A stretch of DNA of 64,000 nt from Curvularia clavata (taxonomy: Eukaryota): assembly GCA_023920165.1 (NCBI GenBank), contig CP089274.1, positions 1 through 64,000 on the forward strand, in the 5' to 3' direction. Under the pieces are notes generated by a model. That model saw only the letters and a list, made by a program, of their open reading frames with translations. It searched no databases and had not been told where the DNA came from. Within the stretch, counting starts at the first letter, position 1, and each line of letters starts with the position of its first letter. Of this stretch, positions 28,232 to 37,714 are shown one piece after another. Both the position numbers and the translations under genes were made by a program.

Positions 28232-28356
28232 AGCAGACGAGGGGGTGGGGGGACCGCTAACTTAGCTATGCAGAGTAGGTCAGGGTGGAGGTCGCCTGTT
28301 GACGTAGCGTAGATTCAATTTCAGCAGATGCGGGGGTGGGGGGCCGCCGTCTTAGC
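28232..28356 (+). promoter_or_regulatory. Duplicated G-rich motif in the divergent MFS/NmrA promoter
   Basis: AGCAGAcgaGGGGGTGGGGGGaCCGCtaaCTTAGC at 28232-28266 and AGCAGAtgcGGGGGTGGGGGG-CCGCcgtCTTAGC at 28323-28356. Confidence 0.7.
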
Positions 28357-28562
28357 GTGTCGGAATCAGGGACCACTTCAGAGGACAGGGGTTCATCTGA
28401 AATAACAACAATCTCAAATATTGGTAACTAATTGTTAAGCAGATCTGTTACATAAAGCGATTGAATCATACTCACAGAGCCACACCATTTTTGATCTTGA
28501 ATCGTGGATAGTTCACTTTTTCTTGTCTTTATTTGCCCGATCAACCTTACAAAATCGAAAGC

Positions 28563-29529
28563 ATGACCGCGATAAAACATGTCGCGTTGATTGGAGCTTC
28601 CGGGAAGCTTGGTCCATCGATTCTCGACGCATTCCTTGACAACGGCAACTTTGATATCACGGTGCTGTCTCGTGAAAATTCGGCTGCGGCATTTCCTCCT
28701 ACAGTGAAGACAGTCAAGATCAAATTCGATTACGATTCGCTCAAAGCAGCATTCTCAGGCCAAGATGCTGTGATATCTGTTGTAGGAAATGCGCAAGCCA
28801 GCGATCAAAAGGTTTACATCGATGCTGCTATAGCTGCTGGTGTGAAGCGATTTGTTCCGTCAGACTTTGGTGGCTGGACACCCGATACGACTATTCTCGA
28901 CAAGAACAAACTTTTCAAACCAAAATCGGAGATAGCTGAGTATCTGAAGAAGATGGAGTCCGAAAATTTTAGCTGGAGTGCCATAATAAACGGTCCAGTC
29001 TTTGATTTTGTATGACGATCGCTTCATTTGGGAATCACGAACCTACTAATAAGATGTGTAACAGAGCATGAAGGTCGGGTTTTTAGGATTCGATTTGACG
29101 CGCAAAACAGCGGAAATCTGGGACAATGGAGATGCACGATTTTCCAGCACAACACTTTCCACCATCGGCAAAGCCACAGTTCGTATTCTGGAACCTATGA
29201 ATGTTGAACAAACGAAGAATCAAGATATCTTCATTCTCTCCTTCACAACAACGCAAAACCAAATCCTTACCATTTTGGAAAATCTTAATGGTAAATGGAG
29301 CGTAGAAAGAGTGAACTCGAAGCCACTGATTACGGATCTACACAAGAGGCTCGAAACCGGCGACTTCGGACCCCAAGTGGTGTATGGGTTAATAAAGGCA
29401 GCAACATTCGCTGGCAATGTAGGGAACCCGGGGGATTATAGTCAACTGTCATGGAACGAGATATTACACTTAGGTTCAGAGAACTTGGAGACTGTATTGG
29501 TTAACATCTTGAAAGATGTCAGCCCCTGA
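28563..29529 (+). CDS. NmrA-like / isoflavone reductase-like NAD(P)-binding protein, 2 exons
   Basis: VALIGASGKLG Rossmann motif, AAIAAGVKRFVPSDFG, GFLGFDL; intron ~29010-29065. Confidence 0.9.
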
Positions 29530-33898: not shown

Positions 33899-33971
33899 GA
33901 ATGAAACCAATATGATACATTTCTATCAAGACAAATAAGGATGAATGAGCATACCTCATGTGATGTGACAT

Positions 33972-36563
33972 CTATTCTTCTGAGTCTCGACGGCGGGGTA
34001 GCCTACCGGCGAGCAGTTGCTCTGCTAAGCAAGCCAGTCCATCACGGAGATTGAACCATCCTACCCTTGATCGGAGGATATTTCGGTACTCTTCAATCAC
34101 TCGCTTAGCGTCCTCAGGTCCTTCTAAGACCCCAAGACCTGCCAAATGTATCTTGCGGCAACCACAGTGCTGTAGCCAGTGTTGAAGCGCCTCATAGTCT
34201 TTAAAGTTATCAATCCGCACTGGCTCTCTGTGCGTACAAATGGCTTCGTCTGTGTGGTAGGTGATTGTGGAACTGAGGATGCAATATGTCCAAATCACGA
34301 GAGTCGCAATTAGGATAAAGAATGAATCAAAACACGAGAAATGAGATGTGTTCCTCAAATCCCGAAATACACATGCTGCATGCCAAAGGCATCGTCGCAC
34401 TGAACCAATTTCATTCAGAATCCAATTCTCAAGGTATGCTCTTGCCTCTTGTCTTGCGCGGAAATCTGCTTCCCAGCCTGAGAACGCATAGATCGCTCTC
34501 AGGCTAACGTGTCGGAGGATCGACAATATATGAAGCGAGCAGTCACTCGCGAAGCTAGGCAAGTAGCCTGGGCCTGAATTCTTTTCCAAAATGTGTTTGA
34601 GCAAGCGATCAACAAGTGTTGACCGGTGGGATAAGCGCTCTGTAGACTCACGACTAGTAAGAGTCGAATGCGATGTTCTCAATAATTCTGGATACCGTGC
34701 TCGTAGACGAGCGCGTAGTGCTGTTTGATACGCTGTTTCTAAATTTTCAAGGCGTTCTTCAGTTATTGAAGCAGTGGTAAGCACAATTTCCTCGAAGGGA
34801 GACCGCGATGAAGTATGCGTTGCCTGTGAGCGGTGCAAGTTCCACTCCTCCGCTGTTGCAGCATTCCACAAAGTTTCTGTGGAAATCTCATCCCTGTTGT
34901 AGTCTCTGGTAAAATGCTGTGGCTTTAGGTTGAAAAGTGCAAATTGTAAGCACTCGAAACCTGCAAGTATGATTAGCGCAAAGTGAGTAAGATCACCTGC
35001 GGTACTTACGGTCAACACAATATTCGAGCCTCTTTGATTTCTCAGTATTTAACCAAGATTTCCATTCTTCTTCTATACTGAGATGGGTCGGATGGTGCAT
35101 TTTTCGTCGCGCGGCTAAGTCATCACCCAACTGCTTTACCAAGGTGCACAGCAGGCTTCTTTGAAACTCCTGTTTCAAGTGTCCGCTTTTTTTCCCGTCG
35201 CAACAAAGATTGATTTGGCTGATGAGGACACTCTGGGCAAAGTCTATAGTGATATCACTACAACGCACAGGTGTCTACCGACATTAGATCCCGTTCGACG
35301 ATAGAATGATAGTAGTGTACTAACATATTGATGGATGGCCTTTTGAAGTAGAAGTTGAAGGTACTTTGTATAGCCAACGGCGCTCTCTAATGCCGAATAC
35401 TGAGATCCTATAGATGTGACAGCTACTAATAGAATCCAAGACGCCGATCCGTCTTGCAACTGTTGTTTATGGATATATGGAAAATGATGGTCGAAGAACT
35501 CGAAATATAATTCAGTAAAGGCGTGCATCATTTTGAGGGACGGGCACTCGGGAGAAGCAGCAGTTTGGTGCAGGGCGAAAAACTGCTTGACTTTGGCGTA
35601 GGCGGACTTTGAAATACTGCTAACGTGACAAAAGTTTTCACATTTCAGGACCTCCTGTAAGACGTTGGGATTTGGGCCAATAATTGCTTGGAATAGTCCG
35701 GGCACTGTGTCTGAACCAAGGAAAGCTTGCCCACTAGTGGCAAGCCTACTGTTCGTTTCTGGAGTATCGAACACACTGCAAGCTCCAGCTAAAGAGAGTG
35801 CCGTATGATCATCAAGTCCTAGTCCTTGTGAGTCTACATCGTCGGGCATCATGTTTCTTGTCTCAATATCAGCCCCCCCATGCATCCATTGGAGGTGTTG
35901 GAGATCCAAATCGAGTTGAGCATTGTACGCCATGAAGTCCAGAAAAGTTTCGCCTTGAATTCCATTGCCTAAGTTTGTTGGCATCCCGTTGCTGCAGGGC
36001 GATTGCGTGGACCAAGAATTGTCATCAGTGTCGATCATAGTGTTGAGACTATACTGGACATCAGGATGTTCATGGGTCTCCGTGTTCATGTTCATAGAGC
36101 CGTGAATCGTATTCCTAGGGTTTTTTTGAAGTTCGCTGGTCATGTCGCCTTCAGAAGGACTGTCCTTTCTGCCGCCGGTAAGGATGTCATCACATGATAT
36201 CCTCTTCTTCTGACATCTTGCACACGGTATGCCGTTTGTACACCGTTTCTTGGACTTCACACAGTTTCTGCACGCCTGGTTCGTCCTTGTCCCTTCTAAG
36301 GCTAAATGCTGCCTAACCTCCATTGCACGATCACCGTGTACAAGGCTATGTCTGAGCAAAGCGTCCCTGTATCGCGTTACAATTGCCATCTGGTTTCCAT
36401 TGAAATGCTACACAAACCTTCGCGAAAAGTGTGCATTGCATAGTGTACATCGCAGTGATTTGTCTCCGGTATGGCGACGAAGATGACGATTGAGATGGTC
36501 CTTACGGCGGAACTGTTGGTTACATTGCGAACAAAAAAACCGCACCTCTCTTTTTTGGTTCAT
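33972..36563 (-). CDS. Transcription factor: two C2H2 fingers + Zn2Cys6 cluster + fungal TF middle-homology region
   Basis: Exon 1, read manually and absent from the ORF track: MNQKREVRFFCSQCNQQFRRKDHLNRHLRRHTGDKSLRCTLCNAHFSR. Intron 36417-36367, then RDALLRHSLVH; ACRNCVKSKKRCTNGIPCARCQKKRISC; LYFEFFDHHFPYIH. Alternative in-frame ATG at 36575. Confidence 0.9.
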
Positions 36564-37714
36564 TGTGATATTCATAAAGTCAGTTGTGCCTCGTTGATTG
36601 GTTTGGGCAAGCTAGGTCAACCCGACAGCTGTTGAGAGGTCGACGAAGGAAGCGCCGCAAAGCAATTCAGTGCGCACGTGCCTATTGTCAATGAAACAAA
36701 AAATCTGCCGAGACTGACAGCGCCTTCTTGGTGCTACACCACTTTCAACAGTTCAGCACAGGCAAATGCAGGATGACAGAGTCGATGTTCTTCCTGAGCC
36801 TGTAATTAGCGCATCCGGTGGTTTCCGGACCTTTCGTCGAACTAGCTCGCGTCTTCCGTGTCCATCAGAGCTGCATTTCGGCTCAGGGGAGGCTTCGGCA
36901 TCCCCACACTAAGCCAAAAAACACACCCTTGTTGAAAATCGCGATAATTAATCATCACGTGAAGAACGTTACCCATACACAACATTTTCGTGATTACCAA
37001 TCCTTGCTTGTAACTATCTTCCGTGATTTCTACGCTTTACTATGAGTCTTGCACACACCAGTAATGTCGCATATAAAGATAACGACTATAGTTCTATCAG
37101 TGATACAGCGCGCCATTACGGTGTTACATGTGGTATACCAGCCTACTGCCTCAAAAACACTGATGTTAGCTGTAGAGCACTAAGGAAATTTATTCAGTAC
37201 AGTCGCAGAAACAGTTAGTAGAAAAGGTTATCGAGAGGGTCGTTGGTGGCTTGGGCCACAAACGTGTAATAAATGCTCGGCAGTTCGCGAGGCGAATTAC
37301 GCAGCTGTGGGCGACACATGACCACTTCCCCGCCTGTTGAAACATAACCGACAGCCCCACATCCCGATATCTGATTCCGACTATTCAATTCACAGCCTTC
37401 TGCCACCCCCTCATCTAGTCAAACTTTCCTGCTGATGTATGGGTAAGAGCTAAGCTGTGGTCAGCGTGCTAGGATCAGCTTTCCCCACACTAGCTTTTTG
37501 GGGAAATCCTGAAGCTCTGTGACCCCGTTCCTCGAGTGAATGGCTATTTGCAATCGCCTTGAAGCTAGATATAAACGACCTAATGAACCTACTCTTCTAC
37601 TTGACTGATCATGCATTATCACATATGCTTTCGGTGTACAAGTGAATTGAATATCTGCATTCCCCTGCCCTAATCTCCAAGCACCATCTTTTCAACTCAA
37701 TTAGCACTTCCAAA

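Follow-up and report, generated by a model that had tools for sequence, protein, structure and literature searches.

A candidate composite operator for a C2H2-Zn2Cys6 factor in a subtelomeric monooxygenase cluster of Curvularia clavata

Factors that carry both C2H2 zinc fingers and a zinc cluster are found in most filamentous fungi, melanin regulators included, and the literature we found leaves open whether the two domains read one site or separate sites. This question is raised by a gene cluster in the first 64,000 nucleotides of contig CP089274.1 of Curvularia clavata (assembly GCA_023920165.1, forward strand; hereafter the window), which form the start of contig C1 of the 32.4-Mb, eight-contig host genome that we searched. 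The cluster runs in the order major facilitator superfamily (MFS) transporter (-), NmrA-like reductase (+), broken metallo-beta-lactamase (MBL)-fold hydrolase (-), flavin monooxygenase (+), dual factor (-) and CocE-type hydrolase (+). From GTGGGG sites and nearby CCG or CGG triplets in these promoters, an earlier note had proposed a bipartite operator read by both DNA-binding domains of the factor. We find that a CCG at one fixed spacing is enriched, giving the composite GYGG(G/A)G-N3-CCG, not defined in that note, in the clade of the window factor and in one unplaced relative, L045; the hexamer alone cannot be distinguished from CreA-type sites, and few window sites are exact. With some reservation, and from sequence evidence, we favour the reading that the cluster factor reads a bipartite operator with both domains.

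The dual factor and its predicted hexamer

33972..36563, minus strand: dual factor, 813 aa without a stop, exons 36563-36418, 36366-35325, 35274-35010 and 34960-33972

The encoded protein has two intact C2H2 fingers followed by a 21-aa linker, a Zn2Cys6 cluster whose six cysteines lie in the same open frame (Pfam PF00172, over cut-off) and a long C-terminal region; no Fungal_trans-type Pfam match was found on the window factor exons, and its homologs P0117 and P0119 match PF04082. RNA-type contigs join across all three introns, and both contig sets join across the one that splits finger 2 (36367-36417). The RNA origin of these two sets is a guess, no run being recorded as RNA, and they were used for splice joints only; gene parts outside their cover were not counted as evidence. 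C2H2 helices contact DNA from positions -1, 3 and 6 (PMC5260074, in whose available part we found no residue table). The earlier note had read the helices correctly as RKDHLNR (finger 1) and RRDALLR (finger 2), and its prediction of GTG or GCG followed by GGG holds up, as the helices are nearly identical to engineered fingers for GGG, GAG, GCG and xTG. In the accessible part of PMC5260015, the middle fingers RREHLVR, RQDNLGR, RTDTLAR and RNDALTE are given for GGG, GAG, GCG and CTG, respectively, which supports GTG-GGG as the site of the window factor.

The cited strings are all present at the positions reported for them, and the three promoters are indeed rich in the hexamer, with 11 GYGGGG in 2358 bp versus 2.1 expected from 154 kb of the genome's own intergenic DNA, a count matched by 0 of 1500 dinucleotide shuffles. 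GTGGGG lies at 28245, 28336, 31976, 31982 and 31994 on the plus strand and at 36902, 37355 and 37483 on the minus strand, CCCCGC lies at 37328, and GCGGGG is also present at 28330 and 32057 (plus strand), two sites absent from the earlier note. The elements of the three promoters are as follows.

28213..28356, plus strand: two copies of a unit of about 54 bp, period 91, each with tandem G-hexamers
28245..28256, plus strand: exact composite GTGGGG-N3-CCG, with GAGGGG in register before it
28330..28346, plus strand: GCGGGG and GTGGGG-N2-CCG
31974..32000, plus strand: (GTGGRG)n array in register, retained at greater length in the paralog; the CCGs that follow are not conserved
36879..36890, plus strand: conserved block CGGCTCAGGGGA with a second conserved CGG, maybe one arm of an RNA hairpin
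36896..36907, minus strand: exact composite GTGGGG-N3-CCG upstream of the factor ATG; hexamer and CCG kept in the paralog, spacer changed
37086..37138, minus strand: intron upstream of the factor ATG (one RNA-type contig; donor-side block conserved)
37328..37360, minus strand: GTGGGG at 37355 and GCGGGG at 37328, with TCG at N3 of 37355 in the window
37403..37416, minus strand: 14-mer AGATGAGGGGGTGG, perfectly conserved, resembling the MFS/NmrA unit and absent from the earlier note
37480..37494, minus strand: 15-bp block with GTGGGG at 37483-37488 and no CCG, perfectly conserved in the paralog

In the MFS/NmrA promoter both reported element copies exist, but they are not independent: they belong to one local duplication in which self-alignment pairs 28213-28252 with 28304-28343 and the match extends to 28266/28356. 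One extra G in the G-run of 28330-28346 gives the N3 spacing in runs X6 and X12 (one contig per run). The monooxygenase promoter is divergent and common to the broken MBL-fold gene, which the earlier note lacked. The intron at 37086-37138 suggests a factor leader of at least 575 nt, so that the composite at 36896 probably lies inside the 5′ leader; this intron, together with numerous ATGs upstream, also points to post-transcriptional control of the factor.

A CCG at fixed spacing

Sister clusters were taken from the same genome (two C2 clusters, C2a and C2b) and from a metagenome scan of 14 loci, in which L038, L041, L045 and L048 were used as clusters and L042, with a factor of the same clade as the window's and other neighbours, was kept separate. 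Near-copies (L040, L043, L046 and L047, which repeat the hits and sites of other loci; L043 is 97% identical to L042) and loci with the promoter missing (L039, L044, L049 and L051) were left out, and L050, on a contig without module genes, has one GTGGGG and no composite. GYGGGG is present in all 15 sister promoters from the two C2 clusters and four metagenome loci (27 sites versus 7.2 expected); it was found in 66 of 177 windows of background sequence and in 18 of 38 generic promoters picked heuristically. GTGGGG ranks first and GCGGGG fourth of 1999 6-mers in this set, and the base at -1 is G or T at 26 of the 27 sites.

At 12 of the 27 independent sites a CCG lies no more than 12 nt to the 3′ side of the hexamer, where random placement predicts 4.7 (P=0.0005) and flank shuffles predict 6.3 (P=0.005); for GCC the trend is weaker (P=0.06). 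When 2048 trimer/offset pairs were scanned over 38 sites, window included and the C4 paralog excluded, the top two were CCG downstream at a spacer of 3 and CCG directly upstream (Bonferroni P=0.049 each). GYGGRG-N3-CCG occurs five times in L038, L042 and L045 (0.088 expected) and three times in L038 and L042 (0.032 expected), the loci outside the spacing choice, and neither count was reached in 1500 dinucleotide shuffles. The N3 spacing had been fixed before the L038 site was seen and the L042 sites were read, although one L042 site had already been listed by then. The group formed by C2a, C2b, L041 and L048 has seven CCG-GYGGRG (0.15 expected), an arrangement with no occurrence in L038, L042 and L045, and a single GYGGRG-N3-CCG (0.15 expected). 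Strict composites were found in 8 of 16 sister promoters versus 1 of 13 unrelated monooxygenase promoters (P=0.02) and 1 of 38 generic promoters (P=9e-5). The monooxygenase control, the sole one made of enzyme genes, comprises those 13 of 19 own-genome PF01494 matches in which the N-terminus is covered; of 92 candidates only 17 had been scored, and start codons are approximate.

A wider regulon was considered and set aside: there is no genome-wide excess of the composite, and two outside hits lie beside a polyketide synthase/MFS pair and a zinc-cluster gene, in neighbourhoods with no cluster gene in common except a weak MFS match. The other dual factors of the genome have hexamers and, by eye, lack an N3-CCG in the 800 nt that precede their fingers. 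One unrelated monooxygenase promoter (L141, G000:C3:1317657-1318736) carries GTGGGG-GAG-CCG, the same 12-mer as L038, and is possibly a remote target or a chance match.

Other candidate signals did not hold. TAGTGTGGGG is not a specific motif (56 matches genome-wide versus 49 in the control), the stress response element (STRE) core AGGGG is found 4 times versus 10.2 expected in the 15 sister promoters, and a paired-CGG Zn2Cys6 dimer site does not describe the window composites, which have one CCG beside GTGGGG; the everted CCG-N10-CGG occurs only in L042. A further string, AGAYGMGGGGGTGG, lies at 37403-37416, 28235-28248 and 28326-28339, with four of its five genome-wide matches in the cluster or paralog; picked post hoc, it may represent tandem finger sites or the site of another factor.

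Conservation, covariation and alternative readings

The MBL-monooxygenase-factor-CocE block has a second copy at C4:4229573-4238825, with a factor 71% identical to that of the window; 95 of 237 four-fold sites (40%) differ and the contact residues are the same, so the two factors probably cross-regulate. The C4 factor groups with a Bipolaris protein and not with the window copy, and the duplication thus looks older than that split. In the TF/CocE promoter all three GTGGGG are kept in the paralog (one shifted in the alignment), against an overall 6-mer retention of 90 of 1146 (7.9%), and the longest perfect blocks include 37480-37494, 37403-37416, 36879-36890 and 36902-36912. GCGGGG at 37328 is lost; the counterpart of 37355 is GTGGGG-N3-CCG; and the 36896 composite has a retained CCG but an altered 3-bp spacer. 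Of the proposal in the earlier note, the hexamers are supported, being conserved in the paralog and in sister clusters. No support was found for any nearby CCG or CGG as the half-site, the signal being narrower, a CCG at 3 bp, and the TTAGC tail was rejected as part of the operator: it is lost in the paralog, and its pattern has 8 matches at 4 places genome-wide versus 9 in the control. The monooxygenase promoter and its paralog also hold a conserved block, GAAGAGGTGGYGGCGC (window 32134-32149). The C4 block itself adjoins a tandem array of period 7816 bp, probably rDNA.

In a factor tree of 22 rows (L028, L030, L031 and L050 left out for want of a match), one supported clade (100/98) unites the factors of the window, C4, Bipolaris, L038 and L042, and a second (100/100) those of C2a, L041, C2b and L048, with L045 unplaced. 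The linker between finger 2 and the zinc cluster measures 21 aa in the window, C4, L042 and L045 (L038 is truncated); C2a, C2b and L041 have 16 aa and L048 has 24 aa, within a range of 12-26 aa over 64 homologs, three mis-parsed rows aside. The L042 finger 1 is RQDNLSR, with Asn in place of His at position 3, for which GAG is predicted, and in the L042 promoter two sites of the form GYGGAG-N3-CCG stand head to head at 140-170 bp from the ATG, this pattern being found 0 times in 154 kb of intergenic DNA and 8 times in 570 kb. Among exact N3 composites the ratio of G to A is 7:1 in His-finger members and 0:2 in the Asn member (P about 0.07, hand calculation). Members with Ala in finger 2 favour GTG and those with Thr GCG (21:4 versus 8:10, P=0.009; P=0.09 after collapsing); this covariation of finger residue and base, not being made of independent contrasts, is suggestive. 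The L042 sites form a symmetric GYGGAG-N3-CCG-N10-CGG-N3-CTCCAC (L042:8967-9000), beside P450 and hybrid histidine-kinase genes, an arrangement that suggests a dimer operator.

How might one chain read such a site? C2H2 fingers bind antiparallel to the G-rich strand, so finger 1 would sit at the 3′ GGG, finger 2 on GTG or GCG, and the chain would leave finger 2 at the 5′ end. The Zn2Cys6 cluster, a domain that can bind as a monomer in factors such as AlcR, would then contact one CGG, on the opposite strand and 3 bp past the finger 1 triplet, giving 5′-KGYGGGG-N3-CCG-3′. From finger 2 to this CCG is one helical turn, about 10 bp, a distance that the 21-residue, partly helical linker might cover in cis by running back; otherwise the CCG might be read in trans by a dimer partner. 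In the second clade, the CCG directly 5′ would be the landing point of a short-tethered zinc cluster. Two fingers (6 bp) or a lone zinc cluster (3-5 bp) would be too unspecific, and joined they would cover about 9 bp at fixed geometry, with tandem hexamers that lack a CCG serving as lower-affinity finger-only sites open to CreA-type competition. The dual factor would in this way regulate, presumably as an activator, a small catabolic or detoxification module, and autoregulation through the conserved composite upstream of its ATG is plausible. More tentatively, C2H2-Zn2Cys6 factors may at large read one composite with a clade-specific grammar, N3-CCG with a long linker and CCG-GYGGRG mostly with a short one, in which the hexamer tracks the finger residues; we would not yet call this generalization probable. 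If true, it would amount to a code that predicts DNA sites for the commonest class of dual-domain factors in fungi, and one hexamer could then serve several paralogs as well as CreA while their regulons stay separate. With a composite defined, and with a finger variant and a second architecture available in nature, dual reading becomes testable with short oligonucleotides; the composite also offers a handle on the regulons of a widespread monooxygenase/MBL module.

Several observations weigh against dual reading. The initial choice of spacing drew on the window, C4, L045 and L048, and exact composites account for only 2 of the 11 window hexamers, with none in the monooxygenase promoter, where 0 of 10 CCG/CGG triplets are kept in the paralog, both cited ones included. 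The composite is not enriched genome-wide (195 versus 209 in the reversed control), and hexamers, though above intergenic background, are not significantly denser than in unrelated monooxygenase promoters: these have 20 GYGGGG in 7.8 kb (9 of 13 promoters), similar to the 27 in 7.9 kb of the sister clusters (P=0.21), and the window rate is not significantly above them (P=0.08). The genome also encodes several other two-finger factors with similar helices, which we read by their helices as CreA-, AmdX- and MsnA-like, so the hexamer by itself does not identify its reader. The G-to-A switch, though suggestive, is seen in one lineage only, and the architecture contrast amounts to roughly one tree split, in which L041 has neither composite and L048 has both. 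The predicted linker structure, a helix at residues 13-24 with a predicted local distance difference test (pLDDT) score of about 52, is low-confidence and was not used as evidence. Lastly, an RNA hairpin might account for the conservation of the 36896 site, and at that position alone it is a serious competitor.

These points bear on three other explanations. It is unlikely that the hexamers are sites of global C2H2 regulators (CreA, AmdX-like), with the CCG arising by chance or read by the zinc cluster of the cluster factor beside another protein, as for GipA and GliZ. The monooxygenase controls agree with it, CreA accepts GGG as well as GAG, the genome has a CreA-like gene, and SYGGRG, the CreA consensus (PMC8844935, as far as accessible), covers the hexamer, as the earlier note had cautioned for GTGGGG; the hexamer by itself does not separate the cluster factor from CreA or other factors. 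The other CreA variants, CYGGRG and GYGGAG, are however not enriched in the window and C2 clusters, CYGGRG being 2.8-fold enriched in the metagenome loci and GYGGAG enriched in C4, and an invariant global factor leaves unexplained the clade-specific spacing and side of the CCG, the L042 switch to GAG and the trend linking Ala with GTG and Thr with GCG.

We think it rather less likely still that the factor binds by its two fingers only, the CCG triplets being incidental. This would suit the 9 of 11 window hexamers outside exact composites, the perfectly conserved 37483 site that has no CCG and the monooxygenase array that has no conserved one, but the fixed-spacing enrichment survives dinucleotide shuffles, flank shuffles (P=0.005) and two control sets, and the zinc cluster is the essential domain in Cmr1, according to the available part of PMC5415576. 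Least probable, and in our view very unlikely, is a structural or mutational origin of the G-rich stretches, with a GGTGGG microsatellite or G-quadruplex at 31974, a hairpin in the leader RNA at 36870-36920 and the duplication at 28213. The four-tract G-quadruplex pattern at 31974-32000, the array length that differs in the paralog and the local duplication would all fit, as would the strong hairpin upstream of the factor ATG (36868-36925, minus strand, z=-4.0), whose outer stem the paralog keeps via G-U pairs. Against this, no more than 2 of 20 cluster promoters match the G-quadruplex pattern and the paralog lacks it, the paralog hairpin has z of about 0, and sister clusters of other fungi have isolated sites and composites too.

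The factor class and its module in context

The class, and a role for both domains in Cmr1p, were already known. From their accessible parts, C2H2 plus zinc-cluster factors occur in 73% of fungal genomes surveyed and both Cmr1p domains contribute in vivo (PMC5415576, Shelest 2017), as also stated in PMC12426039, whose available text gives no Cmr1 binding site, and a motif resource gives the two domains separate matrices (PMC8637145). We found no composite site for the class in the open literature; subscription papers, CIS-BP array data and supplements (e.g. that of PMC8637145) lay outside the search and may already contain such a motif. Like Cmr1p and Pig1p, the window factor is cluster-linked, with two C2H2 fingers and then Zn2Cys6 at its N-terminus, but its neighbours are monooxygenase, MBL, CocE, MFS and NmrA genes and not those for 1,8-dihydroxynaphthalene (DHN)-melanin. 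At gliA a C2H2 site for GipA lies beside a zinc-cluster site for GliZ in the 5′ region, the two being interdependent (PMC4006717, in the part available); those are two proteins and another sequence, whereas the window factor has both domains in one chain. The hexamer is a subset of the CreA/Mig1 consensus, yet these proteins have no zinc cluster, the consensus as quoted in the accessible part of PMC8844935 has no fixed CCG, and the cluster sites prefer G or T at -1. Pho7, as described in the available part of PMC6265462, reads a single CGG as a monomer with flanking contacts adding specificity, which in the window factor would come from the tethered C2H2 fingers. MoIRR, judged from the accessible text of PMC6220061, is unrelated.

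The remaining genes of the cluster are these.

25813..27976 (end approximate), minus strand: TRI12-like MFS transporter gene (Pfam TRI12; spliced RNA-type contigs)
28563..29529, plus strand: NmrA-like reductase gene (Pfam; intron 29010-29064 from RNA-type contigs)
30444..31649, minus strand: MBL-fold hydrolase gene, broken by frameshifts and stops
32271..33898, plus strand: flavin monooxygenase, intact model of six exons encoding 455 aa, with 78% identity to P0003 of Bipolaris victoriae
37715..39794, plus strand: CocE/NonD-type (Peptidase_S15) hydrolase gene

The closest named homologs of the cluster genes are from Bipolaris, which points to a pleosporalean host. One frameshift of the MBL-fold gene is at a TA microsatellite near 31460-31480; its long exon is open in the C4 paralog, and the promoter it has in common with the monooxygenase still keeps the G-array. 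All four MBL homologs in the genome adjoin a dual factor and a monooxygenase, and an MFS homolog adjoins CocE in L045; no NmrA homolog was seen in the sister clusters examined. The dual factor, a flavin adenine dinucleotide (FAD) monooxygenase and an MBL-fold protein, often with CocE and MFS, thus form a recurrent fungal module, of which we found no description in the open literature searched. The closest solved proteins to the monooxygenase are flavoprotein aromatic hydroxylases, and an aromatic xenobiotic is probably what the module hydroxylates, hydrolyses and exports. As an analogy of inventory, it resembles the Fusarium FDB1 benzoxazolinone-detoxification cluster in its MBL, FAD-binding protein, NmrA-like protein, transporter and factor (PMC10512309, as far as available); FDB1 has amidases and a dienelactone hydrolase instead of CocE, and no MBL match was named MBL1. 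In L048 the monooxygenase has an arylamine N-acetyltransferase-family gene (L048:1182-2198) upstream, reminiscent of NAT1 in the FDB2 detoxification cluster of Fusarium.

The cluster is subtelomeric, with telomeric CCCTAA repeats within window 1-175, about 50 bases in from the contig start. Elsewhere in the window, a second NmrA-like gene lies beside an RPE65/carotenoid-oxygenase-family gene (43063-45530), possibly a stilbene-cleavage pair, and long C homopolymer runs occur on the plus strand at about 20150-20175, 20485-20512 and 49800-49816.

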